A stretch of 64,000 bases of DNA from IMG/VR virus record IMGVR_UViG_3300035501_000471; one strand, given 5' to 3'. This DNA is from a virus (taxonomy: Duplodnaviria > Caudoviricetes). Positions 8,913 to 52,735 of the stretch are shown one piece after another; position 1 is the first letter of the stretch; the number at the start of each line of letters is the position of its first letter. The position numbers were made by a program, and so were the translations under genes. The notes under the pieces were generated by a model. That model did not search any database and had not been told where the DNA came from. It saw only the letters and a program-made list of their open reading frames with translations.

Positions 8913-10780
8913 TGTCTTAATTTTTCCTTTCTTTTTCCTGAATCACCACCAAACCAAATATCTAACTCATCTTGGGCAATGTCATCCAACTCATAATAAT
9001 AGATGTTCGGATTTTGAATAATGTCCTTATAATCTTTATCTTCAAGAGCAGAAAGACCTTTATAATATTCTACATTCCATTTTGTCACATCATTTTTTTC
9101 ACACCATTCATCATAATCAGACTTGTAGTAGAATTTAATCTCTTTCTTCCCTTGTTTAACTATCAGAATAGGTGTGTCAATCTTAGCAATACGATGTTCC
9201 TTGAATAACTCTGGCCAATAACAAGCGAAGATATTGACCAACAAAGCTGAAATATTAGAACCATCTGTATCAGCATCTGTCAAGATATTGACAGTATGTA
9301 TTCTGAGATTGTCTTCAAACAATTTTCCATTCCTATACACAAATGGAGATTGACCAAATTTAAGACCCATCGCAGACATTATACCCTGAATTTCCTTATT
9401 TTCCCTAATTTTTTCTTTGGAAGCATCTCTTGTATTGAGGATTTTACCTTTAATAGAAATAAGTGCTTGTGTTTCAGGGTTACGAAATCTACGGAAACCT
9501 GCACTGGCTGAATCACCTTCCGTAATTGAAAGTGAGGTGAGGTGTTTTTTAGAAGTTCCCGCGAATTTACAATCAACCAATTTATCTACTTTAATTTTAG
9601 ACAGGGATTTATTTACTTCACGTTCGGCTTTCTTTTCATCGGCCAATTTTTTCTGGTCTAACCAATCAGTAATAGAGTTAGTTATTTCACTCTTATATAT
9701 CTGATTAAGGAATTTGTCAGTCAGTTTTATCTCTGTTCCAAAATTCTTAATATCAGTAATCAGTTTTTCCTTTGTTTGACTACTAAATTGTGGATTAAAA
9801 ACCGTTGAATTGATAAATAAGAAAATGTGGTTTTTAATCTGACCGGGTAGTATATCTGTTTTATATTTCTTACCTATTTTCTCTCTAAGGAAAGGAGTAA
9901 TTCGATTTAGTATATATTCCAAGTGTGTACCTCCATCATAGGTATATACACAATTCACATAACTAACTTGTTGAAATGAACCTGTGGGACTAACTGATAC
10001 TCCAACTTGCCAATCTTTATTTTCCTCATACAGTAATAATCCATCATCTTCGATATACATTTTACAGTAATCTTGAAATGAATTGATTTGGATTTTTTTA
10101 CCATTATAGAAGATATTTAGATTTGGATTACACCCCGCGATTTCATATACTCGTTTTTCAATCAATTTCAAAACATCATCACCAATTTTATCCATTCCAA
10201 ATCTACTCAGTTCAGGTGTGTAGGTGATACGGGTGTAGTGTTGAATTGTGTTTTTAATCTGAGCCATGGAATGTTTCTTCATGTTGTCATTCCAATACAT
10301 ACTGAATTTCTTTTCTCCATCAGCTGTTTCTACCTCGAATAATGTAGAGAAGATATTTGAAACAACTGAACCGATACCATTAGTTCCCACCCAAGTTCGT
10401 TTTTCAGTGTCATCAAAATTAGAACCTGCTCTGAGTCTTGAAAAACAAACCGCTGGGATATATTCTTTGGTACCTTCCATCAGTTTAACAGGGATACCAC
10501 CATTATCAAAAACAGATATAGTCCCTTCATACTTATCTATATCTACTTTGATAGTGTTTAATTTAGTTCCTGTTCGTTTACTTTCATCAACTGAATTTGA
10601 GATAATTTCATCAAACAATTTAAGGAAACCGGGATTATACTCAACTTCTTTCTGAACGAACTTACCATTCTCCAAAACATACTGGGTACTTTTCTCGGTC
10701 ACAACAGAACCAATATACATACCCGGTCTTTGAAGGATGTGGTCAATTTCACTAAGTATTTTATATTTTCTATTTTCCAT
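8909..10780 (-). CDS. Type IIA DNA topoisomerase, GyrB/ParE-like subunit (T4 gp39+gp60 fused)
   Basis: HILQRPGMYIGS, EIISNSVDE, DNGGIP, GTNGIG, TEGDSA, DADTDG, YYKGL. Confidence 0.95.
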   Translation of the reverse strand: MENRKYKILSEIDHILQRPGMYIGSVVTEKSTQYVLENGKFVQKEVEYNPGFLKLFDEIISNSVDESKRTGTKLNTIKVDIDKYEGTISVFDNGGIPVKLMEGTKEYIPAVCFSRLRAGSNFDDTEKRTWVGTNGIGSVVSNIFSTLFEVETADGEKKFSMYWNDNMKKHSMAQIKNTIQHYTRITYTPELSRFGMDKIGDDVLKLIEKRVYEIAGCNPNLNIFYNGKKIQINSFQDYCKMYIEDDGLLLYEENKDWQVGVSVSPTGSFQQVSYVNCVYTYDGGTHLEYILNRITPFLREKIGKKYKTDILPGQIKNHIFLFINSTVFNPQFSSQTKEKLITDIKNFGTEIKLTDKFLNQIYKSEITNSITDWLDQKKLADEKKAEREVNKSLSKIKVDKLVDCKFAGTSKKHLTSLSITEGDSASAGFRRFRNPETQALISIKGKILNTRDASKEKIRENKEIQGIMSAMGLKFGQSPFVYRNGKLFEDNLRIHTVNILTDADTDGSNISALLVNIFACYWPELFKEHRIAKIDTPILIVKQGKKEIKFYYKSDYDEWCEKNDVTKWNVEYYKGLSALEDKDYKDIIQNPNIYYYELDDIAQDELDIWFGGDSGKRKEKLRQ

Positions 10781-10784
10781 AACT

Positions 10785-10798
10785 TAAACATAACAAAA
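10785..10798 (-). promoter_or_regulatory. Early/middle promoter-like motif TTTTGTTATNTTTA (representative of 12 copies)
   Basis: Also at 5282, 6300, 13500, 15003, 15059(+), 21587, 26677, 29469, 39814, 50493 and 52757, upstream of non-structural genes. Confidence 0.8.
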
Positions 10799-10824
10799 GA
10801 TGTGGCTTGAATGACCACATCTTT
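10796..10824 (-). terminator. Intrinsic terminator abutting the promoter-like motif
   Basis: aaagatgtgg...ccacatcttt inverted repeat. Confidence 0.6.
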
Positions 10825-10826
10825 AC

Positions 10827-11177
10827 CTATTTATTATTATTTATGTCATCTGGATCAAAGTAACGAAAACCTTGAAAACCTTTATATGGGATTTTTTCAT
10901 CTAAATAATGAAATTTCCCACTACGTTCAATAAAGTTTCCCTTAAATTTTCTACCTGTTGTTGTACAAGTGAATTCCTTTGTTGAAAAACCACATATAGT
11001 CATCCAACCCTTAATGAAACCTTTGTGAACAATATAACATCTATCACCTTCTTTGACCTTAGTGGGGAAATTACTTACCTTGAAGTTTAATATCTCTCCC
11101 CTCTCCGCCGCCTTTAGTTCTTCCTTATAATCTTCCCAATCATAATTAGATGGATAAGAGATAATGATTGCATTCAT
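10827..11177 (-). CDS. Hypothetical protein (possibly PUA/ASCH-like)
   Basis: 116-aa ORF, KEGDRCYIV...IPYKGFQGFRYF. Confidence 0.6.
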   Translation of the reverse strand: MNAIIISYPSNYDWEDYKEELKAAERGEILNFKVSNFPTKVKEGDRCYIVHKGFIKGWMTICGFSTKEFTCTTTGRKFKGNFIERSGKFHYLDEKIPYKGFQGFRYFDPDDINNNK

Positions 11178-11634
11178 TGATAAAATCTATTGTTTCTTTG
11201 TCACTATTTTCAAATGTTCGACCATAAATTTCGTAAGTCATATCAAGTAATTTCTTTTTAATAGAAGAAACTGATACAAAATCTTTCTCTTTTATGATTT
11301 TCTTAGCATCCTTTACGATTTGTTTAAGAATTTTGATGTCATTTTTAGATATAACTGACAAAAATCCATCATCCTTAAAAGATTTGTTGAATTTAGAAAC
11401 TAATTTCTTGAGGTCTTCATAATTTTGGATTTCAGTTTCATCCGGTTCTTCAATGACATATTCTTCGACAACCACCTTATTAAAATCAACAAAAGTCGTT
11501 AAAGTAGAGACAACCTTATTATCAGACTGTTTAATCAAATGTGAACCAGCACGAGTATCATTTTTACCATATCCTCGGTATTCACATATCATTCTTTTTA
11601 CCAGTTTATTTTTTGAATATTTGTCTTTTACCAT
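11146..11634 (-). CDS. Hypothetical protein
   Basis: 162-aa ORF coupled to the MTase stop via ATGGTAA overlap. Confidence 0.65.
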   Translation of the reverse strand: MVKDKYSKNKLVKRMICEYRGYGKNDTRAGSHLIKQSDNKVVSTLTTFVDFNKVVVEEYVIEEPDETEIQNYEDLKKLVSKFNKSFKDDGFLSVISKNDIKILKQIVKDAKKIIKEKDFVSVSSIKKKLLDMTYEIYGRTFENSDKETIDFINECNHYLLSI

Positions 11635-13277
11635 AATTCTTCGTTTTTTTCTAAGTTCAACCCTTCATCAGCTGGGTAATCTTCTTGTAAATGGTCAACA
11701 TAAATCTGAGCTCGTTCTTGTGGCATGTAATAACTCTCATCAGGTTCATCCTCAAGATAGTCATTGTATTCCGTTTTCAATTTAATCTTCTCCGGAAATT
11801 CATAGTAGGGATTTGGTTCATCATCTGTTTTAAGAATAGAAATCATAAAAATTCGTTCTCTATTTTGAGGAATACCATAATCCTTAGCATTTAACACCTG
11901 ATAGAAATTCACATATCCATAAGACTCCAACTCTTTACACCATTTTTGAAACAAGTGAATGAATTTGTCAGAAACAAGAGCTTTCACATTTTCAAACAAA
12001 AGATATTTAGGTCTTTTCTTAATGATTGTTTTTCGACATTCCCACAAGAGAGATGAACGTGTACCAGAACCTTCAGTACCTCCAAGTTGTAATCCCGCTT
12101 GTGAAAAATCAGTACAATTATGGACAATACAACCATTAGCGGTATATGAATTATCTTTATCAACCTCCATGTTATATACCTCTACTTGACTATCACCACC
12201 AGAGGATATTTGTTTTACAGGACTCCAAAAATAACCATCCTCATAGAAACCATATTTTTCAAGGTCTATCCAACATAATTTCCACTTACCACCATCTTCA
12301 TTAATGATATATGGTTTTTGGTATGACTTCGCAACACACTGAGCTAACTCATATATGAATTTTCTGTTAGTTGAATATATACTACCTTTAATACTATGAT
12401 CCATTAAAGAAAATTCCTCACTTTCAATAATACCATGTAATACTTCTTTCTGAAATTTAATAGGTAGGTTGAGAATGTCACTGGTTAGATGTTTCTCTGA
12501 CTCCGATGAACCAAATGTCTTAAAATAATCTACAACTTTTTCGACATCATATTTCTTAGCCGTGTCAGTCTCTATAAAACTGTAATAATACTCACCAAAT
12601 TCCTTAGCTAATTCAGAGTTATCATTTCCCCAATTTCGACCAAGGAACATACCTAAAACAAACCAGAATGTATCTATCTTAAAATGTGTGTTTAATCCTG
12701 TTACTCTTGGTAATTTGGATTCATTATTGATAGCCACACCTACATAATCAGTAACTTGTAAATCTTGAGCATATTTCCACTTAGGTTTTTTCTTACCCAA
12801 ATTTTCTTTTACATAAAATGGGTGTGTTGGAGTACATTTAATTTCATCAGAGTTGGTTGTTGTGACTTTAATTATAACACCACCATGAGTTTTAGACATA
12901 GGTGCTAAGACCTTACGATATTTGTTCTTATGTGTCAATACCTCATCATCACAAGTAATATCTTCAATACATTTCATACCATTCTTAGTCATAACAAATG
13001 TACCCGCAACAAAACAAGGTGAACTATATGTGAACAAATCAAAATCAGGAACATTATCCCAATCTATCTTACTAATATCACCATAGTTCCTGTCTTTCCA
13101 TTGAGGAAACAGTGCATCATGAGCTTGGATGGCATACTTATCTATCTCACTCCAACCAACAAGGTCATAATCAAAGTCATATTTTTCTTTTAGAGTATTG
13201 AGAGCCATACATTGACTATCATAACCTGAGAAAGCTGTGAATACTCTTAATGGATGTTTCTTGTTAAATTCTACCAT
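11628..13277 (-). CDS. DNA cytosine-C5 methyltransferase, large subunit (motifs I-VIII), intein-containing
   Basis: FSGYDS (I), SEID (II), GDI (III), SP|C (IV, interrupted), ENV (VI), QNRERIF (VIII); motifs IX-X absent. Confidence 0.9.
   Translation of the reverse strand: MVEFNKKHPLRVFTAFSGYDSQCMALNTLKEKYDFDYDLVGWSEIDKYAIQAHDALFPQWKDRNYGDISKIDWDNVPDFDLFTYSSPCFVAGTFVMTKNGMKCIEDITCDDEVLTHKNKYRKVLAPMSKTHGGVIIKVTTTNSDEIKCTPTHPFYVKENLGKKKPKWKYAQDLQVTDYVGVAINNESKLPRVTGLNTHFKIDTFWFVLGMFLGRNWGNDNSELAKEFGEYYYSFIETDTAKKYDVEKVVDYFKTFGSSESEKHLTSDILNLPIKFQKEVLHGIIESEEFSLMDHSIKGSIYSTNRKFIYELAQCVAKSYQKPYIINEDGGKWKLCWIDLEKYGFYEDGYFWSPVKQISSGGDSQVEVYNMEVDKDNSYTANGCIVHNCTDFSQAGLQLGGTEGSGTRSSLLWECRKTIIKKRPKYLLFENVKALVSDKFIHLFQKWCKELESYGYVNFYQVLNAKDYGIPQNRERIFMISILKTDDEPNPYYEFPEKIKLKTEYNDYLEDEPDESYYMPQERAQIYVDHLQEDYPADEGLNLEKNEELW
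12117..13016 (-). mobile_element. 300-aa intein with degenerate LAGLIDADG region, inserted before the catalytic Cys
   Basis: Begins CFVAGT, block B CTPTHPF, ends VYNMEV...ANGCIVHN|C; endonuclease blocks decayed (LGMFLGRN, LHGIIESE). Confidence 0.92.
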
Positions 13278-13495
13278 AAAACGTCATCTTGTTGTTTAGG
13301 TTTATGAATAAATAATTTTTCAAACATATTGGACATACAATTAACAACTATAGAATTACCATACATATTACAAAGTTGAGTATGTGAAATTCCACAGTTG
13401 GTCATTATATCAATATCTTCTTCCTTAACACCCATTAATCTTCCTATTTCTTTGGGTGTTAATTTTCTAATTCGATAATATTTTTTCTTAATCAT
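13271..13495 (-). CDS. C5-MTase small subunit 1 (motifs IX-X only)
   Basis: RIRKLTPKEIGRLMG and YGNSIVVNCM; own promoter-like motif at 13500-13513. Confidence 0.8.
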   Translation of the reverse strand: MIKKKYYRIRKLTPKEIGRLMGVKEEDIDIMTNCGISHTQLCNMYGNSIVVNCMSNMFEKLFIHKPKQQDDVLW

Positions 13496-13513
13496 AATGT
13501 AAAGATAACAAAA

Positions 13514-14047
13514 TTAAAAGAGTGATGTTTCCGGATTGTTAGATTTTTGACAGAATAATTTTTTGAATATCTCTGACATCACATTTACACATATTGAATT
13601 ACCAGCTAACTTTTTACATTGGGTTTTTGGAACTGTATTTAACAAAGTTTCAACGTCATCATCACACACACCCATTAGTTTGAATGTTTCTCGATTGGTC
13701 AATTCCCTAACTTTGTAATTCCTATCCCACACATAATTATCAGTAGAGAATGTGGTTAAGGTATTGGAAAACCCTTGGTCTGTGACATCTAAATATTTAC
13801 CTCTACCAAACTTAATCCCACTGTCACCATATAACCGTCTTAACCTTTTTTCTTCATCAGTTCGTTTTATTTTTAATATCTGAGGTGGTTTTATGTTGTC
13901 ATTAAATATATAAACATTATCACCTTCAACTGTGCAACATATGTTCAATGAATTTTTAAGATATTTCCTTTTCTCAAATTCATCCTTTTTCAAATATAGA
14001 CTGTCATCAACATTATATTCAATTATGTCATCTAAACTTTGTCGCAT
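13514..14047 (-). CDS. C5-MTase small subunit 2 (putative TRD plus motifs IX-X)
   Basis: SNTLTT (TRD TL dipeptide), RELTNRETFKLMG, AGNSICVNVM. Confidence 0.8.
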   Translation of the reverse strand: MRQSLDDIIEYNVDDSLYLKKDEFEKRKYLKNSLNICCTVEGDNVYIFNDNIKPPQILKIKRTDEEKRLRRLYGDSGIKFGRGKYLDVTDQGFSNTLTTFSTDNYVWDRNYKVRELTNRETFKLMGVCDDDVETLLNTVPKTQCKKLAGNSICVNVMSEIFKKLFCQKSNNPETSLF

Positions 14048-14137
14048 GGTCTCACCTCTTTAACTTCCCAACTTCGGTCAAAAATGTTATGGTAAAATAT
14101 CACTTTATATGGTTCTTGACCAACATATATAATCTTA

Positions 14138-14998
14138 CTAAAATAAGGGGACTTCTCCATCTTCTTTTTTCGTTTTTTCTTTCTTGTTTACATTATATGA
14201 TACCTTACCATCATACTTTTCAACTATATTCAACCGTTCCATAATAATCTTATAGTATTCTTCACTGATTTCACTACCAATATATTTTCGATTATTTAGA
14301 ATACACATCTTGGCCGTTGTTCCTGAACCCATAAAAGGATCGTAAACAATATCACCAGCATTACTCCAAGATAATATATGGTCTTGTGCTAACTGTTCGG
14401 GAAAGACCGCTGGATGACCTGTTCTATCTTTTTCACATGATGTAGTATAAGTCCAGATGTTATTCCTCAATGAAAACTCAGGAACGGGTTTTATCTTATT
14501 ATCCCTCTCATCCTTTCCATCTTTACTATAATATGTTAGTTTTCCCCAGTTCGTATGACCAGCCCATTTGTTTGGTTTATCACACAACAAATGTATGTCA
14601 TTCCTAATCTTACCCTTAGTGAAAACAAACATATATTCAAAAATCTGAGTATATCTTTTTGAATCTGGTTTGGCCGGAAATGCTGATGAATTTTTTTGAT
14701 ATATCATAGTATCATGTAACAGAAATCCACAATCCATAAAATAAAGAGCTTGTCTAAATGAAGTTCCTGTTTCTGTTCCACCTATAGTCGCATCACCAAC
14801 TACCCATACTAAAACTCCACCGGGTTTAAGAATACGGTATAATTCATGAGCAAGAGTATCAAATTCAAATGTATATCCATTATAATTCCTCAAAGAATCA
14901 TATGGGGGAGAAGTGACAACCAAATCAACAAAGTTATCACTGATACGTTTACACGTATCGACATTACTCTCATTATATATAGTATTTACTTCAATCAT
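14138..14998 (-). CDS. DNA N4-C/N6-A methyltransferase, beta class
   Basis: TSPPY, HPAVFP, DPFMGSGTT. Confidence 0.92.
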   Translation of the reverse strand: MIEVNTIYNESNVDTCKRISDNFVDLVVTSPPYDSLRNYNGYTFEFDTLAHELYRILKPGGVLVWVVGDATIGGTETGTSFRQALYFMDCGFLLHDTMIYQKNSSAFPAKPDSKRYTQIFEYMFVFTKGKIRNDIHLLCDKPNKWAGHTNWGKLTYYSKDGKDERDNKIKPVPEFSLRNNIWTYTTSCEKDRTGHPAVFPEQLAQDHILSWSNAGDIVYDPFMGSGTTAKMCILNNRKYIGSEISEEYYKIIMERLNIVEKYDGKVSYNVNKKEKTKKEDGEVPLF

Positions 14999-15090
14999 AA
15001 CCTAAACATAACAAAAAAAAGTAGACCATTTGTTATATCATATAATATACTTAGAATTTTTTGTTATCTTTAAAGTAAATTAATTATAAA

Positions 15091-15822
15091 ATGAAGAAGA
15101 TAGTAACTTTTATATCAGACACACATGGTTTTACTACTAAACTAAATGAATTGATCAATAAGTCTTTACAAACAGAAAATGTTGATCATGGAGATATTAT
15201 TATATGTAGTGGTGACTGTATGACATCAGGTTATCACACTATGGAATTGACTACTTTTTTGTCATGGTTCTCTAAGTTACCATATACATATAAAGTGTTT
15301 ACACCCGGTAATCATGATAGATATTTAGAATCTATTGGGGTTGATATGTCTAAGTCTATTTTTGAAACTCCTGAATACTTTGATATGGGTGTGAGATATG
15401 TTCAAAATGAATTACTTGAACTTGATTTTGATGGAGAAATTCTAAAATTATATGGAACTGGCGATCAACCTAAGTTTTGTAACTGGGCATTTAATAGGGA
15501 TTCCGAAGAATTAATTTTTAGTTATTCTAATATTCCAGATGGTATAGATATTTTGATTACTCATTGTCCTCCGTTTGGTATTTTGGACTGTTCTCATGTT
15601 CCTAATCCATATCGAAATACTACTGGTGAAGAACATTTGGGGAGTGAGGAACTATTGGATCGATTAAATACTATAATAAATCCACCTAAATATCACGTGT
15701 TTGGACATATTCATGGTGATGGTGGTAAAATTATTGAACAAAGTGGTATTACTTTTATCAATGCATCTGTTTGTGATGAAAGTTATAGACCTAAAAATGA
15801 AATAAAAACAGTGAGAATTTGA
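15091..15822 (+). CDS. Calcineurin-like metallophosphoesterase
   Basis: SDTHG, SGD, GNHD, THCPP, GHIH. Confidence 0.9.
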   Translation: MKKIVTFISDTHGFTTKLNELINKSLQTENVDHGDIIICSGDCMTSGYHTMELTTFLSWFSKLPYTYKVFTPGNHDRYLESIGVDMSKSIFETPEYFDMGVRYVQNELLELDFDGEILKLYGTGDQPKFCNWAFNRDSEELIFSYSNIPDGIDILITHCPPFGILDCSHVPNPYRNTTGEEHLGSEELLDRLNTIINPPKYHVFGHIHGDGGKIIEQSGITFINASVCDESYRPKNEIKTVRI

Positions 15823-15846: not shown

Positions 15847-18003
15847 TTAAACAAATGCATAATAAAAGTCTGGGGCACTATCTTTTATATATTGTTGAGT
15901 TGGTGTAAATTTTTCTCCTTCTTTCTTACCCCATAAAGAGGTTACGGTTAGTCGCTGATATACAGTTGATGACAATGCAGAATAATTATTTGCATAAAGT
16001 TCGTATACATTTCTATAAGTGAAATTATTACTTGATGGTGGTATTAATTGAATACATCCTGATTTAAATACATGGTTTGTATATGTTGAATATATATACA
16101 CGTACCCTCCAGATAAACCAGTATGTACTGTAACATTACGTATGGCATACATAGGTGTTGATGTATTATTAGAATTAGAATAATTACCCAATCCAGTATA
16201 GCATATATCATCATCAAATTTACAAAAAGAGATATTACTACCTTCTTTAAGGTTATTTTTCACCGTAGTCCATGAAGTATATTTAGTTATTGTACTATCA
16301 GAATTTATGTCATGATTAACAAATCCTAACCAATCATATATACAATTTTTCCCAAACGTGTTAGAGTAGCAATATTGTCCAAACGTGTTATAGTGGCAAG
16401 ATTGTCCAAACGTGTTATAGTAGCAATATTGTCCAAACGTGTTATAGTAGCAATATTGTCCAAACGTGTTAGAGTAGCAATATTGTCCAAACGTGTTATA
16501 GCGGCAATCTTGTCCAAACGTGTTAGAGTAGCAAGATTGTCCAAACGTGTTAGAGTAGCAATATTGTCCAAACGTGTTAGAGTAGCAATATTGTCCAAAC
16601 GTGTTATAGTAGCAAGATTGTCCAAACGTGTTATAGTAGCAATATTGTCCAAACGTGTTATAGTAGCAAGATTGTCCAAACGTGTTATAGTAGCAATATT
16701 GTCCAAACGTGTTAGAGTAGCAATATTGTCCAAACGTGTTATAGTAGCAAGATTGTCCAAACGTGTTATAGCGGCAATCTTGTCCAAACGTGTTAGAGTA
16801 GCAATAATTACCTAATGTCATTCCATAACAATCTTCTTCTATCACATTATCATGTACACTATATAAAAATCCTAAAAACGTTTCGGGTGAAGTATCTTCA
16901 TTAGTGTCATCTTGTGCATATGCGATACCCGTAGCATCACTACATCTATTGTCATATTTAGTAAATACAATATTATTTAATTTTAAAACATTGTATACAA
17001 CATCATCATCATAACATACAAGAACATGATATGGTTTTATAATATTATTATATGGGCAAGACGTTTCATACTCACCATATGCACCATATGAGGTACCATA
17101 TATTTCATCCTCATATATATGGTTCATATTTTGTGATATTTGTCTTTCATATAAAGATGCATCCGAAAACATAAATTGTGAATCAGTAAAACAATTATTA
17201 AATGTGTAACAATAAGTCCACATTGATGTATCATATTTAAATATATAATTGTTTTTATGTGCAAAAAAAGGATATCTACCGGGTGAACAATTTGTAGTAA
17301 ACTTGGACCAATCATTACCAAATTCATCATCTAATGTGTTACTACCATATATGTCATCACAAAACATATCAGTAGGTAATAATATTTTTTCAGTAGGTTT
17401 AGTATAATTACAACCAGTTACTTTATATCGTTTAAATAATATATTTTTAAAATCATATGGTGCCTCATTACCAAATTCATCTTTCATGTAATAAATAACA
17501 CCTTTACCAGCACTATCTGCCCAGTAAAATCTGTTGGTGTCATTATCTAAACAATATTTTAATTCCCAAGCTTCTAATTTTGAATTATTAAAATACTCTA
17601 CACCAACATTATATATTGTATATATTTCAGGTTTATAATTATAATATCTTGTATTAAATTTAACTGTGGGTGTCGAGTTATAAATCACCCCGGACATATA
17701 ATGTGATTGTATTGCTTTTGCGTCTTCTGAAATCGTGTTTCTTGATAATGCCGTTACAATTATATCAAATTTATGACCTGCTGAAGCCGTTTCTTCCTGA
17801 GAAGTTGTTGTTACATAATCAATTATACGATATTGTTTACCGGGTGTTAGTTTACTACTATCTCTTAAATTAACCAGATCATTATATAAAATTTCTCGAA
17901 TACGCTCTTCTTTATATTTACAATTATCTAAATCAAAATATTGTTGGGCAACACTTACTAATGTATTACTTCCATCAATTATTGTTAATGTTGGATTAGC
18001 CAT
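15847..18003 (-). CDS. Putative tail fibre/adhesin with 9-aa NTFGQxCxx repeats
   Basis: 718-aa ORF: N-terminal LTPGKQYRIIDY/DEFGNEAPYDFKNI region plus tandem repeats of likely beta-solenoid type. Confidence 0.65.
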   Translation of the reverse strand: MANPTLTIIDGSNTLVSVAQQYFDLDNCKYKEERIREILYNDLVNLRDSSKLTPGKQYRIIDYVTTTSQEETASAGHKFDIIVTALSRNTISEDAKAIQSHYMSGVIYNSTPTVKFNTRYYNYKPEIYTIYNVGVEYFNNSKLEAWELKYCLDNDTNRFYWADSAGKGVIYYMKDEFGNEAPYDFKNILFKRYKVTGCNYTKPTEKILLPTDMFCDDIYGSNTLDDEFGNDWSKFTTNCSPGRYPFFAHKNNYIFKYDTSMWTYCYTFNNCFTDSQFMFSDASLYERQISQNMNHIYEDEIYGTSYGAYGEYETSCPYNNIIKPYHVLVCYDDDVVYNVLKLNNIVFTKYDNRCSDATGIAYAQDDTNEDTSPETFLGFLYSVHDNVIEEDCYGMTLGNYCYSNTFGQDCRYNTFGQSCYYNTFGQYCYSNTFGQYCYYNTFGQSCYYNTFGQYCYYNTFGQSCYYNTFGQYCYSNTFGQYCYSNTFGQSCYSNTFGQDCRYNTFGQYCYSNTFGQYCYYNTFGQYCYYNTFGQSCHYNTFGQYCYSNTFGKNCIYDWLGFVNHDINSDSTITKYTSWTTVKNNLKEGSNISFCKFDDDICYTGLGNYSNSNNTSTPMYAIRNVTVHTGLSGGYVYIYSTYTNHVFKSGCIQLIPPSSNNFTYRNVYELYANNYSALSSTVYQRLTVTSLWGKKEGEKFTPTQQYIKDSAPDFYYAFV
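16352..16806. repeat. 27-bp coding tandem repeat, about 17 units
   Basis: Unit tgtccaaacgtgttatagtagcaatat, varying at only a few positions. Confidence 0.95.
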
Positions 18004-46897: not shown

Positions 46898-47668
46898 TTA
46901 CCACAGGTTGTTAGTTTCTTTGAGGTAAAACTCTTTCTTAACTCGTTCGACTGAAATGTCATAGTAGTTTTTACTTATTTCAGTTCCTATGTATTTTCTG
47001 TCTAATCGTTCACAAACAGTACAAGTTGTTCCTACTCCTGAAAATGGATCATAAACGACATCATTTTTGAATGTGAATAGTTTTAATATTCTTTCAACTA
47101 ATTCTTCAGGAAACATAGCAGGATGACCAAACTCTTTCATCCTTCTTTCAGGTGATATATTCCACTTAGCGGTTGTCCATTTCTTAAACTCATCAGGAAC
47201 TATACTTATGTTTTCTTTATCACCAATATGTTTAGGATTATTTTTGAAGAAATACTCGATATATTCCCATGTACTTTTTAGATATGGTTTTGACGGACTA
47301 CACCAACTACCCCAAGCAGTAACAGGACAATTATAATTATTTTTTTCCCATATTATTTCACTCCCCCAAGTAAGACCACACTTAGTTAAAATGTTAGATA
47401 CTATATGATGTGTTGGATAATTCACTGTAAATATTGGTTGAACATTCACAAAAATTCGACCATCATCTTTCAAAATCCGGGCACATTCTTCAAATACTTT
47501 AGTCAACCATTCTTCATATTGGACTGGATTAAATGTGTCATCAAAACTATCATACTCCTTTTCAAACATATATGGTGGACTGGTAATAATACAATCTACA
47601 AAATTATCAGGTAGAGTTTTCATAAATTCCAAACAGTCCTCATTATATATTTTATTCAACTCTACCAT
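46898..47668 (-). CDS. DNA N4-C/N6-A methyltransferase, beta class
   Basis: TSPPY, HPAMFP, DPFSGVGTT. Confidence 0.92.
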   Translation of the reverse strand: MVELNKIYNEDCLEFMKTLPDNFVDCIITSPPYMFEKEYDSFDDTFNPVQYEEWLTKVFEECARILKDDGRIFVNVQPIFTVNYPTHHIVSNILTKCGLTWGSEIIWEKNNYNCPVTAWGSWCSPSKPYLKSTWEYIEYFFKNNPKHIGDKENISIVPDEFKKWTTAKWNISPERRMKEFGHPAMFPEELVERILKLFTFKNDVVYDPFSGVGTTCTVCERLDRKYIGTEISKNYYDISVERVKKEFYLKETNNLW

Positions 47669-48444
47669 AATTGATTTCCTTTATCATGTAGAAGAACCTC
47701 TATTCTTTTGTTAGCCAAGTTAAAGTATTCTTCTGTTATTTCAAATCCTATAAATTGTCTATTTGTGTTAATACAAGCTACCGCAGTTGTTCCACTTCCC
47801 ATACAGTTATCTAAGACTACTTCATTTTCATTTGTATAGGTCTTAACCAACCATTCAATTAATTCAACAGGTTTTTGTGTAGGGTGTTCTTCTCCATTAC
47901 ATAGGTGTTCTTTTTTGATTTTGACAACTGAACGAGGGAACTTATATTCACTTATTATAGGATTAATTACTCTGTCAAAATTACCATAACATTGATTTTT
48001 ATCTGTGTGTTCACCATTACCTATTGGATGATTCTTTCTATCAGGGGCATATTCCATTTGAGGATTATATGTACCAAGTTTTTTATAGAATACCATAATG
48101 TCCTCATGACTTCTCATAGGCATCCGTTTAGCATTTAAGAACCCCGTAGGTCTATCCTTTTCCCAGATTAAATTATATCTCCACAATGATGGGTTAGATG
48201 TCATTAAATTGGCTGAGAACATCCCCTGACCAAATAACACAATGACACCCTTATCTTTAATTATCCTTTCATATTGTTCCCATAATTGGTCAAAAGGTAT
48301 AACTGAATCCCACTTGGCGGATTTATTTCCTTTATTTAAGACACCATAAGGTAAATCACAACAAATCATATCAATGGACTTATCAGGTATTTTTGACATT
48401 CCAATGATACAATCTTCATTATATATTTTATTTAACTCTACCAT
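47662..48444 (-). CDS. DNA N6-A methyltransferase, beta class
   Basis: CDLPY, HPTQKP, DNCMGSGTT. Confidence 0.92.
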   Translation of the reverse strand: MVELNKIYNEDCIIGMSKIPDKSIDMICCDLPYGVLNKGNKSAKWDSVIPFDQLWEQYERIIKDKGVIVLFGQGMFSANLMTSNPSLWRYNLIWEKDRPTGFLNAKRMPMRSHEDIMVFYKKLGTYNPQMEYAPDRKNHPIGNGEHTDKNQCYGNFDRVINPIISEYKFPRSVVKIKKEHLCNGEEHPTQKPVELIEWLVKTYTNENEVVLDNCMGSGTTAVACINTNRQFIGFEITEEYFNLANKRIEVLLHDKGNQLW

Positions 48445-49319
48445 AAATTTGTTTCTTCATCATAACTTAAATAGAGGGATTCATAAACCATTGCATTTGA
48501 ATCCTTACCTATTGTCCTTTTGAAAGATGAATTACCAGATTTGATATATAAGTGATGATTATAACATTCAGTTGGAACATTACAAGTATTATCCACGTTA
48601 CCTGATTTTCCATCAAAAGACATAATGAACTTTATGTTATTTTGTTTTAATTTACTTAGTTCAGAAAAAAATTTGTCAAAGTCCAATCCACCAAAATACA
48701 TTCCCTTTGTGTTAAAATAAGGAGGATCCAGATATAGGAAATCATTTATCTTAGCCTGTGAAAATATATCTTCATATGAACAATGTCTGAACTCAATATC
48801 AACTTTATTTAACTTCTCAGACCATTCTTGTAAAATTGGTTGGAGATTATCAGGTGTTATGCCGTTTCTTGTTAAATGAAAAGAGTTATTAAATTCACCA
48901 TTTTTATTATATCTGGGCATACCATTAGTAGTTGTCCTCATAATAAAAAAGAAAATAAATGGATTGTGAGTTTTATTATATTCATCACGTTTCTGTTCAA
49001 AATATTTTCTTTTTATATCAACATCAGAAGTGGAATTTAGTTCAGTCCACATCTTTTTATATTGAGACATTATTTCATCCGGACAATTTTTTATTTTGTT
49101 CCATAGTGAAATCAAGTCACCATTTAAGTCAGAACAGACAATCTTTTTTACTGATATATCACTGTCTAACAACATTCTCATCATTGAACAACCACCACAA
49201 AATGGTTCATAATAAGTATCAATTTGTTGAGGAAAATATTGTATAATTTCCTTGGCTTGACTTCGTTTACTACCAGACCACTTTATGATTGGTTGAAATT
49301 TACCACAGACTTTGTTCAT
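48438..49319 (-). CDS. Dam-family (alpha class) N6-A methyltransferase
   Basis: KWSGSK, YEPFCGG, SDLN, YLDPPY. Confidence 0.92.
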   Translation of the reverse strand: MNKVCGKFQPIIKWSGSKRSQAKEIIQYFPQQIDTYYEPFCGGCSMMRMLLDSDISVKKIVCSDLNGDLISLWNKIKNCPDEIMSQYKKMWTELNSTSDVDIKRKYFEQKRDEYNKTHNPFIFFFIMRTTTNGMPRYNKNGEFNNSFHLTRNGITPDNLQPILQEWSEKLNKVDIEFRHCSYEDIFSQAKINDFLYLDPPYFNTKGMYFGGLDFDKFFSELSKLKQNNIKFIMSFDGKSGNVDNTCNVPTECYNHHLYIKSGNSSFKRTIGKDSNAMVYESLYLSYDEETNLW

Positions 49320-50148
49320 CTTTATGGTTTTTTAATGTTAGACCTTTGATATTTTCATAAAGATATTTGTATAACTTCATGACTGATATTTTCTTACTTG
49401 AAATTGAATTAGCATAGTTTCTTATTACATCAAAATCAAGTAATTTCAACATCTCTGATTTAATTCTTTCATCAGTACAATAGAAATAAACTTCCTGTGC
49501 AAACTCACCTATATGGGATGGTCTTTTTCCTAAACAACCATTTCCCCAATTACACATAGAATAACAAAAATCAGGTGAAATATCTTTGTTTTTACCTGTC
49601 ATATAATCACCATTCTTTCTACGATGTTCAATGATAGTTATTTCATTTAATTCATAGTTGGGTTTACTATTTAACTTACCTGATTTTGGTCGACGATAAA
49701 TGTTAAAACAACAATGTAAATCTCTATCTGTATAATGAGCTAATCCTAAATCCTCACTATAAATCAAATCAAATTTATATAACTTAATATCATTGTTGTA
49801 ACATGAAATTGGTAAAATGAAAGCAACATAATCACCTTCTTCCACACATTTGTTATAGAAATCTTGTATCAATTTATTGTGGACACCAAAAGGAGGATTA
49901 CCAATGAATAATCGACCTTTCTTATATGTTAAATTTAGTTTGAGAAAATCAGCTTGTATTATGTTTTCAGATTCAGGAACAATGTCATAAGCGATGCATC
50001 CTTCTATTTGATTAGAGAAAGAACCATCACCAGCACTTGGTTCGATTACTTCTGTTATGTTGTCTTTACCTATAATGTCAAAGGTTTTTTTAATTAACCT
50101 TTTAGATAGGTCAACAGAAGTATAGTATTTGTCATTATTAATCTTCAT
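49300..50148 (-). CDS. DNA N6-A methyltransferase, gamma-like
   Basis: DKYYT, IEPSAGDGSF, QADFL, GNPPF, AFILP. Confidence 0.85.
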   Translation of the reverse strand: MKINNDKYYTSVDLSKRLIKKTFDIIGKDNITEVIEPSAGDGSFSNQIEGCIAYDIVPESENIIQADFLKLNLTYKKGRLFIGNPPFGVHNKLIQDFYNKCVEEGDYVAFILPISCYNNDIKLYKFDLIYSEDLGLAHYTDRDLHCCFNIYRRPKSGKLNSKPNYELNEITIIEHRRKNGDYMTGKNKDISPDFCYSMCNWGNGCLGKRPSHIGEFAQEVYFYCTDERIKSEMLKLLDFDVIRNYANSISSKKISVMKLYKYLYENIKGLTLKNHKDEQSLW

Positions 50149-50488
50149 CCTTTATTAGTAAATTTTTCAACTTCTCATTAAACAAAGCGTCAGCACCTTT
50201 TTCTTTATATATATCAATAAGTTTCTTTCGGGTTTCTTTATATGACTTTTTCCATTCCTCTGATGCTTTGATTTTCTTTTGAAGTCTCAATTTTTTTTCC
50301 AATCGCCTCAAGTAATCAACAGCACTTCCTTCTTTTTTTCCTTCGATATTTCTAACTCGATTAAGTACATCTAAAACAGCGTGTGTTATACCCTGTTCTG
50401 ATGTTTTATATTCATCATCAATCTCCACACCATCTTCTAATGGTTCAGAGATTACATTAGTGCTGTTAATTAATTTATCTAATTTCAT
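50138..50488 (-). CDS. Chimeric mini-protein: VWA-gene N-terminus fused to peptidase-gene C-terminus
   Basis: Near-identical to 54574-54749 and 54824-54966; intact frame; promoter-like motif 4 nt upstream. Confidence 0.7.
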   Translation of the reverse strand: MKLDKLINSTNVISEPLEDGVEIDDEYKTSEQGITHAVLDVLNRVRNIEGKKEGSAVDYLRRLEKKLRLQKKIKASEEWKKSYKETRKKLIDIYKEKGADALFNEKLKNLLIKDED

Positions 50489-50640
50489 AACTTAAAAATA
50501 ACAAAAGGCTGATGAAAACCTCACCAACCTTTAATACATTATATAAATTTAACTATATCAAATTCCAAAAATTATCATCAACAAATTTTTGAAACTCACT
50601 ATCTAATGGTTTCATATCTTTTAATATTGTTGAGATGAAA

Positions 50641-51528
50641 TCAGACAAAATCCTCTGGTCTGACTCCATACATTTCATAGTAATCTGCAACTCCACATTC
50701 GAGGTCATCTTCACTATATGTAGTTTTTATATCTTTGAAATCAAGTCCAATTTCTTCATCGGTAACTTCACCATACATTTCAAGGTCATCATTATCACAA
50801 TATATAGTTAATTTACTAAATCGAATTTCACCATCACACCAATATTCACCATAACTTCTACGTGAACCAGAAGTCCACACATCATATTCTGAATTTATAA
50901 GACAATTACCTACTGATAATTCTATTTCATCTTCAAATTCAGTCGTTTCATCCATATCCTCACGATATTCAAAATCAAAATTTAGATGATTTTCAATAAT
51001 ATTATAAAGTTCTTGAATATCATCTTCTGTCAATGTCTTTTTCATCCACTCTACAAAACGACGATGTTCAATAACATCTCTTTTTTCTTGATGTTTTTTA
51101 TGGATATCATCATAGTTATGGATTTCCTTATTAGATTTTCCTCTATATCTATCCATATGGTGGTCTTTATCTTGACCGATATGACGTTTATTCCTTTTTT
51201 GTATCAGTTTTTTTACTTCTTCACCATTATCTTTCCACCAAACAGAGAAGATTTCCATATTACCTATAACAACACGATAACCATCTTGTAAGTCTATACA
51301 AAATGTTGCAGGATTTTTGTCATCACCATTATCATACTTTTCACAATACTCATGGAAATCTTTAACAACATCTATAATATCATCATCATGAATATCATAC
51401 AAAAGAGGTTTATCCCACTCATATTTTGGTAAACCATGTTGTTTTATAATGGCTCTCAATTTTCCACTTTGAAAACCTTCATTTAGTGAATTTAGTTTTA
51501 AAAAATCAGAAAAACTTAAAACGTTCAT
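50641..51528 (-). CDS. Hypothetical late protein, candidate internal head protein
   Basis: MNVLSFSDFLKLNSLNEG; CATAAATA at 51550-51557. Confidence 0.65.
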   Translation of the reverse strand: MNVLSFSDFLKLNSLNEGFQSGKLRAIIKQHGLPKYEWDKPLLYDIHDDDIIDVVKDFHEYCEKYDNGDDKNPATFCIDLQDGYRVVIGNMEIFSVWWKDNGEEVKKLIQKRNKRHIGQDKDHHMDRYRGKSNKEIHNYDDIHKKHQEKRDVIEHRRFVEWMKKTLTEDDIQELYNIIENHLNFDFEYREDMDETTEFEDEIELSVGNCLINSEYDVWTSGSRRSYGEYWCDGEIRFSKLTIYCDNDDLEMYGEVTDEEIGLDFKDIKTTYSEDDLECGVADYYEMYGVRPEDFV

Positions 51529-51562
51529 TTCAATAAGTTTATTTTACCATATTTATGAAAAT

Positions 51563-52735
51563 TTACCAAAGTTTTTCTTCATCTGACTTTTTAACTTCTT
51601 TTTTATCAGGTATTTCAGTTAAACTATTATCTATGGCATACTCTATTCTGGTCTTGGCTATTGGTAAGTAATCTTCAGTTATTTCAATACCTATGTAGTT
51701 ATAATTAGCATCTCTATCATAATTCTCACTCATCACTGCTTTTCCTGTTGAACCAGAACCATTAAAACAATCCAGCACAGTTCCACCTTTAGGTGTGACT
51801 AATCTAACCAAGTATTTCATCAAAGAACAAGGTTTACAGGTTGGGTGAAAATTCTTACGGGCAACTCCGCTTCTATTAAACTGATTATTGGCTGATTCTA
51901 ATTCAGGATTTCTATCACTTTTGACAACCAATTCAAAATCATCTAAACCCTCATCTCTATCCCTACGAGAAGCCTTGGCACAGTAAAAATACCTATATTC
52001 TTCGTTAGGAAATCCTTTACATACTTCATTGTCATCTTCATCATAAGTGAGTATTACATTAGCTGGAAATCTACCTTCATCTATTGTTCGTTCACCTGTC
52101 ATTGGTTTCCATCCACCATCATAAGCTTGCCATTTTTCTATTGATTCATCTGTCATCCTATTATAAGCATTCATATTAAACTCATAATTGGATTTATCTT
52201 TTTCACCTGTAATTGGTACTCGACATTCTTCAATATTAAGGGCACCAACATTGTTATTATACATATTATCAATCAGAGAACCTTCAAATGGTTTTCTGGC
52301 GATAATAATAGGTTCATATGCTGGTTTTAGAGCGTTTCCATACTTATATAATTCACTATCGACTGGATGACCTAATTTCTTTTCTAACATTTTACCAACA
52401 TTAGAACTTTTAGGCATACCACTACCATATAACCACATAATAGTATCTCTTATTTCAAAGCCTGCATCTTCAATCGCACACACCATTCTATGAAATGTTC
52501 GAGTGGCACAGAAAGCTACCAAATATCCACCGGGTTTCAATACTTTAAGACAAGTTTTCCAAGTTTCGGGGTTGAGAGTAATTCCTGTATTATCCCATTT
52601 ATTAGACAGGAAATTTAGTTCATATGGTGGATCACAACAAATGGATGTTATACTATTTTCTTCTATAACATCCAACATATCCATCATGTCACCATTATAT
52701 AATTTATAGTTTTTTCCTTCTGAGTATAACTTCAT
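51563..52735 (-). CDS. DNA methyltransferase, beta class
   Basis: CDPPY, HPTCKP, DCFNGSGSTG. Confidence 0.92.
   Translation of the reverse strand: MKLYSEGKNYKLYNGDMMDMLDVIEENSITSICCDPPYELNFLSNKWDNTGITLNPETWKTCLKVLKPGGYLVAFCATRTFHRMVCAIEDAGFEIRDTIMWLYGSGMPKSSNVGKMLEKKLGHPVDSELYKYGNALKPAYEPIIIARKPFEGSLIDNMYNNNVGALNIEECRVPITGEKDKSNYEFNMNAYNRMTDESIEKWQAYDGGWKPMTGERTIDEGRFPANVILTYDEDDNEVCKGFPNEEYRYFYCAKASRRDRDEGLDDFELVVKSDRNPELESANNQFNRSGVARKNFHPTCKPCSLMKYLVRLVTPKGGTVLDCFNGSGSTGKAVMSENYDRDANYNYIGIEITEDYLPIAKTRIEYAIDNSLTEIPDKKEVKKSDEEKLW

Follow-up and report, generated by a model that had tools for sequence, protein, structure and literature searches.

C5-methyltransferases are textbook single-chain enzymes, and every one of them needs motifs IX-X, which belong to the small domain and close the pocket for S-adenosylmethionine. 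How might such an enzyme be built from a locus where these motifs and the catalytic core are encoded by different genes? The question is raised by a stretch of 64,000 nucleotides (hereafter the window) from the Caudoviricetes record IMGVR_UViG_3300035501_000471 of IMG/VR. Here, the gene of a large subunit, called B, stops after motif VIII, and motifs IX-X are found in the small genes S177 and S74. The answer that we favour, and hold to be rather probable, is a distributed, multispecific split cytosine-5 methyltransferase (C5-MTase) with B as its one shared catalytic subunit. This reading is based on gene anatomy, conservation, purifying selection, fused relatives and a supportive structure model; from these we infer assembly, activity, number of specificities and a role in escaping restriction. 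At least four small conserved genes of this giant, rumen-type phage would participate, and with their help one core could probably be directed to two or more DNA sequences, allowing the phage to escape host restriction.

Gene anatomy and the intein of the catalytic subunit

The precursor of B (13277-11628; minus strand, as for all features described between 10796 and 14998) comprises 549 amino acids (aa) and matches PF00145, Intein_splicing and Hint. Its PF00145 match (2e-41) extends to about profile position 203 of 324, i.e. through motif VIII, and the protein also holds the start of the variable region that follows motifs I-VIII. Two genes located upstream encode the putative closing subunits. 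S177 (14047-13514, 177 aa) covers PF00145 positions 189-323, which correspond to the variable region with the target-recognition domain (TRD) and to motifs IX-X. S74 (13495-13271, 74 aa) covers positions 271-322, that is motifs IX-X only. This anatomy had been proposed in an original prediction made from the letters of the window alone, and profile matches bear it out. The split itself is genuine and conserved, but it had been described as one of three genes, whereas at least four are involved. The overlooked one is T162 (11634-11146, 162 aa), located directly downstream of B, whose residues ~13-68 (11598-11431) appear to be a free-standing TRD-like module.

B is interrupted by an intein of 301 aa (12117-13019), inserted between Pro and catalytic Cys of motif IV. 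The intein matches Intein_splicing (7e-15) and Hint_2 and possesses the residues of class 1 inteins: Cys1, Thr and His of block B (Thr-x-x-His) and terminal His-Asn followed by +1 Cys. Judged from its position, the +1 Cys of splicing also represents the putative methyltransferase nucleophile of B. The Pro-Cys of motif IV would be regained across the intein junction, and ENV (motif VI) and QxRxR (motif VIII) are intact. B orthologues without intein (245-251 aa) are very common, and their sequence is uninterrupted across the insertion site. The nearest solved relatives of B are M.MpeI and M.HhaI, and a part of its N-extein DNA shows ~71% identity to phi3T/SPbeta methyltransferase genes. Unlike the longer intein of the related phage L001, the window intein has no LAGLIDADG match, and its endonuclease signature seems to have been lost. 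Inteins occupy the identical site in front of the motif IV Cys in three paralogous C5-MTases (B and the paralogues A and C described below), their presence varying by lineage; besides the window, they are found at L001:2623-5004, L007:7388-9757 and L029:528-2372. Being placed at the catalytic cysteine, the intein might serve as an additional post-translational switch.

S74 is preceded by a promoter-like motif, TTTTGTTATNTTTA / TTTTGTTATCTTTA, located at 13513-13500, 4 nt 5' of its ATG. The stop/start junctions at S74/B and B/T162 borders are identical (TTATGGTAA or TTATGGTAG), each with a 7-nt overlap. T162 in turn overlaps the gene of a 116-aa protein (10827-11177), behind which the unit is closed by a terminator-like hairpin (10824-10796), the only terminator-like site within 10700-15200. 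Given the promoter-like motif, two matching junctions and the single terminator, S74, B, T162 and the 116-aa gene are taken as an operon. An own promoter-like motif of the 74-aa gene and its overlap with B had both been predicted and are confirmed.

The 14-nt sequence TTTTGTTATNTTTA occurs 10 times without mismatch in the window (5282-52770), where 0.05 copies would be expected, and several of them lie exactly 4 nt 5' of start codons. The same motif precedes S74 at the same 4-nt spacing in five relatives (L001, L005, L009, L011 and L022). This conserved spacing suggests leaderless transcripts or a translation signal. A scan for the sigma-70 consensus yielded 30 sites against 26 expected, which is not above chance. 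Another copy of the motif (15016-15003) lies upstream of a gene for an N6/N4 DNA methyltransferase (14138-14998, 286 aa, ending PLF; PF01555, 1.7e-46). S177 and this methyltransferase are probably co-transcribed from there.

Conservation in related phages and fused forms

Does a similar organization also occur in other phages? Among related metagenomic phage contigs of 233-412 kb, the order A - S177 - S112 - S74 - B - T, with all parts as separate genes, is found in six jumbo-phage lineages (represented by L001/L022, L005, L007, L008, L009 and L011). A is a complete, unrelated C5-MTase of ~415 aa with its own TRD and motifs IX-X. S112, usual in the six lineages, is a third closing subunit of ~112 aa with a short TRD. 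T denotes the protein encoded directly 3' of B. Both A and S112 are absent from the window. All parts have intact frames and constant lengths throughout the six lineages. The ratio of nonsynonymous to synonymous substitutions (dN/dS) amounts to 0.10-0.13 for S177, 0.06-0.19 for S112, 0.17-0.23 for S74 and 0.05-0.13 for B, with synonymous sites near saturation, and to 0.04-0.16 for T among close relatives. With dN/dS of ~0.04-0.23, all parts appear to be under purifying selection, so that the comparison with relatives speaks for the conserved split.

These results also bear on the possibility that the pieces are decaying fragments of once-contiguous methyltransferase genes, which the original prediction had itself considered. 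Contiguous homologues do exist in distant relatives (see below), but the pieces do not decay: intact frames, constant lengths and low dN/dS in six lineages with saturated synonymous sites leave this explanation hardly credible.

More than 45 metagenome clusters contain S177 as a protein of its own, with 175-179 aa. S74 orthologues (71-73 aa) are located upstream of B in the six lineages, and a word-based search for S74 homologues retrieved six clusters only, a number subject to the sensitivity limit of a 74-aa query. The phage database contained no close DNA-level relatives, and its protein matches to S177 are only distant, so specificity is not inferable from them. Among PDB structures, S177 matched DNMT2 only, weakly and over motifs IX-X. 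One variant of the L001 phage has S177 and the S112-type gene separated by an inserted gene of IS605 OrfB/TnpB type (L002:5602-6792).

Residues 13-68 of T162 match the protein encoded directly 3' of B in every related lineage. These T proteins are 69-136 aa in length and usually consist of two tandem modules of ~45-55 residues, each having a Thr-Leu/Ile-Thr core and an acidic end. A T-family profile, compared with 1.84 billion representative proteins, gave 23 matches, nearly all of which are stand-alone proteins of 52-113 aa. Related TRD mini-proteins end after ~61 residues (P0187). In P0186 (415 aa), about five T-like modules stand in tandem directly before motifs IX-X; this protein lacks motifs I-VIII and has a clamp-motif-like tail. 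Moreover, L016, a contiguous B-like methyltransferase, has a second TRD with which the first T module can be aligned, exactly up to the start of motif IX (pair E-value 1e-4). The assignment of T modules as target-recognition domains, here in the form of free proteins, is based on this profile search and on these fused relatives.

Further fused forms connect the individual parts. L016 (375 aa), L019 (347 aa) and L023 (355 aa) are contiguous chains in which a B-like core is followed by TRD(s) and motifs IX-X. L021 (332 aa) is a single chain with the order TRD, IX-X, I-VIII and, by this order, is a type H circular permutant in the sense of PMC5944983. In L021 and L027, a B-like core carries an equivalent of S74 fused to its N-terminus. 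In the independent lineages L018 and L026, a B-like core and an IX-X subunit are separated by TRD-like mini-ORFs (open reading frames) in differing frames. Together, these forms indicate that the distributed layout arose more than once or persisted long. As far as can be read from sequence, the fused forms tie each type of part to a B-type core. In the fold model of L016, the catalytic core is confident and the TRD region (229-299) has a predicted local distance difference test score (pLDDT) of 25-34. The cut points flank the confidently folded core; the mode in which a T-like module docks is not revealed by this model. In L025 (9884-11255), a contiguous B-like methyltransferase is divided between two frames. 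The break falls on consecutive Pro codons at the inner edge of motif IX and reflects either a homopolymer switch or an error of assembly.

Could S74, B and T162 themselves be joined into one circularly permuted chain, through recoding at the conserved TTATGGTAA junctions? An identical 9-nt junction at both borders in several lineages and the existence of fused permuted relatives would agree with this idea. However, TTATGGTAA does not form a slippery heptamer, TAA or TAG serve as stops, and this junction is also found elsewhere in the window, between genes of complete, unrelated methyltransferases of the N6/N4 type. In addition, S74 and B of L007 and L011 lie ~0.9-1.4 kb apart and keep their LW tails. 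Recoding is thus very improbable. An alternative genetic code for the stops was likewise considered and rejected, the stops being TAA in most lineages.

A different role for S74 follows if its lack of a TRD is taken at face value. The original prediction saw in it a partner giving a TRD-less enzyme of relaxed specificity, or a regulator. In full, this explanation holds that S177 and B form the specific enzyme, that S74 gives rise to a relaxed TRD-less enzyme or acts as a placeholder or B-competing regulator, and that T162 is unrelated. It agrees with the S74 sequence, with the promoter-like motif of S74 and its translational coupling to B, and with the fused form of L027, which was called without an N-terminal TRD. 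Nevertheless, a TRD protein is encoded directly downstream of the core in the window as well as in all six related lineages. The fused protein of the same type in L021 does have an N-terminal TRD, and the frame of L027 is open upstream. In the independent L018, TRD-like mini-ORFs accompany subunits with IX-X only. The idea is not supported also because T-type TRDs are fused directly before motif IX in P0186 and L016. We consider it improbable; S74 is probably provided with a TRD in trans, and a TRD-less enzyme would not arise.

Docking on B, C-terminal tails and surrounding genes

If S74 is completed in this way, does S177 use the same core? Five whole contigs were scanned with PF00145, and large subunits were counted in two 94%-complete genomes of relatives. 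The only I-VIII subunits lacking IX-X in these two are B and a paralogue, C, encoded at a distant locus. C has its own small subunit of 155 aa, overlapping and in normal order. Since B and C are the sole cores without IX-X and C is self-provided, S177 and S112 represent closing subunits without a private core.

Predicted contacts point to B as their common partner. Within motifs IX-X of the L005 set, S177 and S112 are identical at 22 of 31 predicted B-contact positions and at 8 of 28 other positions. For S177 and S72 the respective numbers are 18 of 31 and 10 of 28, and for S177 and methyltransferase A they are 4 of 26 and 6 of 21. Further, a complex model of B and S177 of L005, each given as an alignment, reached 0.89 in the median run against 0.00 for the best control. 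At least 73% of contacts are common to its runs, with a partner pLDDT of 81 or more. The modelled arrangement is that of monomeric enzymes, with the motif X helix of S177 resting on motif I of B and the TRD core on motif VIII. By a rough calibration with our own alignments, the 0.89 mark was attained by 58 of 80 solved complexes and by 2 of 110 mismatched pairs. The heterodimer anticipated in the original prediction, represented by these orthologues, is thus supported by the structure model, whose pass signifies likeness to solved structures, not binding of these particular chains. With several IX-X subunits, one core, common predicted contacts and S177 modelled on B, the earlier idea of exchangeable small subunits switching specificity holds in outline.

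Several points weigh against a core shared by S177 and S74. In most relatives the neighbour of S177, often with an overlap, is not B but the full-length methyltransferase A. This is also the strongest support for the main rival explanation, according to which only S74, B and T162 form an enzyme, and S177 serves a C-type core outside the window, works with A or is non-catalytic. The separate upstream promoter-like motif that S177 has in common with the N6/N4 methyltransferase fits this explanation, as does the existence of C as a second split enzyme in relatives. Moreover, the PF00145 search for cores spans the 64 kb of this genome seen here, and another large subunit may be encoded elsewhere. 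On the other side, A is complete, with its own TRD and IX-X, and has few of the contact residues in common with S177 (see above). C is supplied by its own overlapping small subunit, an S177-like subunit follows the B-like core in L026, and the complex model puts S177 on B. All in all, we regard service of S177 elsewhere as unlikely.

The remaining contrary points concern B, the complex model and T162. In motif I, the second Gly of the usual FxGxG is replaced by Asp throughout the B family. The complex model may have passed simply by mirroring the many solved monomeric C5-MTases. T162 gave no significant BLASTP match with S177, and T162 and T proteins belong to no Pfam or PHROG family. T162 bears an unexplained C-terminal extension of ~100 residues (11146-11430), which has no relatives in any fetched locus and looks like a fusion with an unknown domain. 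Finally, the AlphaFold2 prediction of T alone is of low confidence (mean pLDDT 54) and uninformative. With these points taken into account, the shared catalytic subunit B is still the reading that we prefer.

S177 ends in SLF, and S74 and B end in VLW or ELW. In the non-overlapping ORF set of the window, ten frames end in [LIVM]-[FW] and nine of these in L-[F/W]; the tenth (83 aa, ending IF) was discounted, as it lies outside the gene-dense part. All nine L-[F/W] frames (11628-14998 and 46898-52735) encode DNA methyltransferases or their parts: B, S74, S177, four PF01555 enzymes, one Dam-type and one PHROG 799 methyltransferase. The tail occurs in none of the ~45 other ORFs of the window. The original prediction had noticed it on all three proteins and taken it as a sign that they are maintained. 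LW of S74 and B lies within the junction TTATGGTAA and is retained also in L001, where the two genes do not overlap, as it is in L007 and L011.

Distant small-subunit homologues end in QLSLF (downstream frame of L025) and QLTLDL (L026), which we take to be two classic beta-clamp-binding consensus forms (QL[S/D]LF and QLxLxL). The L-[F/W] tail itself looks like a clamp-docking motif. It is similar to bacterial beta-clamp clients in being a short C-terminal tail that ends with Leu and an aromatic residue. It differs from them in that the window tails fit the consensus in the last two or three residues only and several end with Trp. No clamp gene was found within the window.

Regarding the surroundings, the window has ~30% G+C and a T4-type topoisomerase II is encoded beside the locus. 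Pfam and PHROG searches with the 116-aa protein gave no match; homologues of it are encoded in L023, where one directly follows the contiguous B-like methyltransferase, and in L008, where another lies ~4 kb downstream of B. The stretch 46898-49319 comprises a stack of three complete genes for adenine/N4 methyltransferases, with the 7-nt stop/start overlap also seen at the S74/B and B/T162 borders. The gene next upstream of this stack (49300-50148) has a 20-nt overlap. In a 718-aa protein (15847-18003), which may be a fibre or surface protein, a Cys/Tyr-rich unit of 8 residues (NTFGQxCY type) is repeated in tandem more than 20 times.

Proposed assembly and known systems

How would the parts work together? 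B would supply the catalytic large domain with motifs I-VIII and become competent only after intein splicing has regenerated the Pro-Cys active site. Motifs IX-X, which B lacks, would be given in trans by one of the alternative closing subunits, S177 or S74. S177 would bring its own TRD; S74 brings none and would be completed by the free TRD module at the N-terminus of T162. Both assemblies, B + S177 and B + S74 + T162, would use the same face of B, making them mutually exclusive, and would methylate two different sequences. In relatives having S112 and a two-module T, up to four sequences could be methylated. The LF and LW tails of B, S74 and S177 would dock on a common partner, most likely the sliding clamp. 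Put together as a three-piece C5-MTase (T162, S74 and B) with S177 competing for B, with combinatorial specificity and with clamp docking by LF/LW tails, this is a tentative proposal that falls somewhat short of an even chance.

To our knowledge, few natural two-chain or permuted C5-MTases exist, and multispecificity is known only as tandem TRDs in one chain. The latter type is represented by M.SPRI, M.Phi3TI and M.H2I of Bacillus phages, in which one core is combined with several short tandem TRDs, each with its own target, and which serve phage anti-restriction. Our locus is similar in that one catalytic core would be used for several short TRD modules, but these reside on separate proteins, S177 and T162, with S112 in addition in relatives. 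Tandem TRDs are found in T proteins of relatives and in P0186, both of which lack motifs I-VIII. The multispecific Bacillus-phage enzymes are included in the reference list of PMC8936443. In our literature search, no published description of intein-bearing or multi-part phage C5-MTases was found.

Among two-chain enzymes, M.AquI consists of a large chain with motifs I-VIII and the proximal variable region and a small chain with the distal variable region and motifs IX-X (PMC3404938). B and S177 are divided in exactly that way. In contrast to M.AquI, small-subunit genes are here located upstream of the large one, and at least four parts are present in the window. There are also two alternative closing subunits (three in relatives), one of them without TRD, an intein in the large subunit and an LF or LW tail on all chains. 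M.EcoHK31I is likewise a natural C5-MTase that requires two polypeptides, but its small chain has motif IX alone and is encoded within the large gene in another frame (PMC3404938, PMC2836561).

Type H circularly permuted C5-MTases include M.BssHII, M.Alw26I, M.Esp3I and others (PMC5944983). The gene order of the window, with TRD/IX-X before I-VIII, mirrors their permutation, and L021 represents its single-chain example. Here, however, the parts are separate polypeptides, with a stop codon and 7-nt overlap between S74 and B; motifs IX-X preceding motif I in a single polypeptide occur in L021 and L027, not in the window. By analogy, the locus may be likened to a frozen intermediate on the duplication-and-truncation route, which PMC5944983 discusses as a way to permutation.

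If our proposal is true, target recognition in the C5-MTase family would be fully detachable and exchangeable, and wider restriction protection of giant phages at low coding cost would be explained. It would also provide naturally evolved split parts for targeted-methylation tools, which now use artificially bisected M.HhaI, M.SssI or M.EcoHK31I (PMC3404938, PMC2836561). Should the three-piece assembly in particular exist, the locus would resemble systems with exchangeable HsdS subunits in its combinatorial specificity, here for cytosine-5 methylation.

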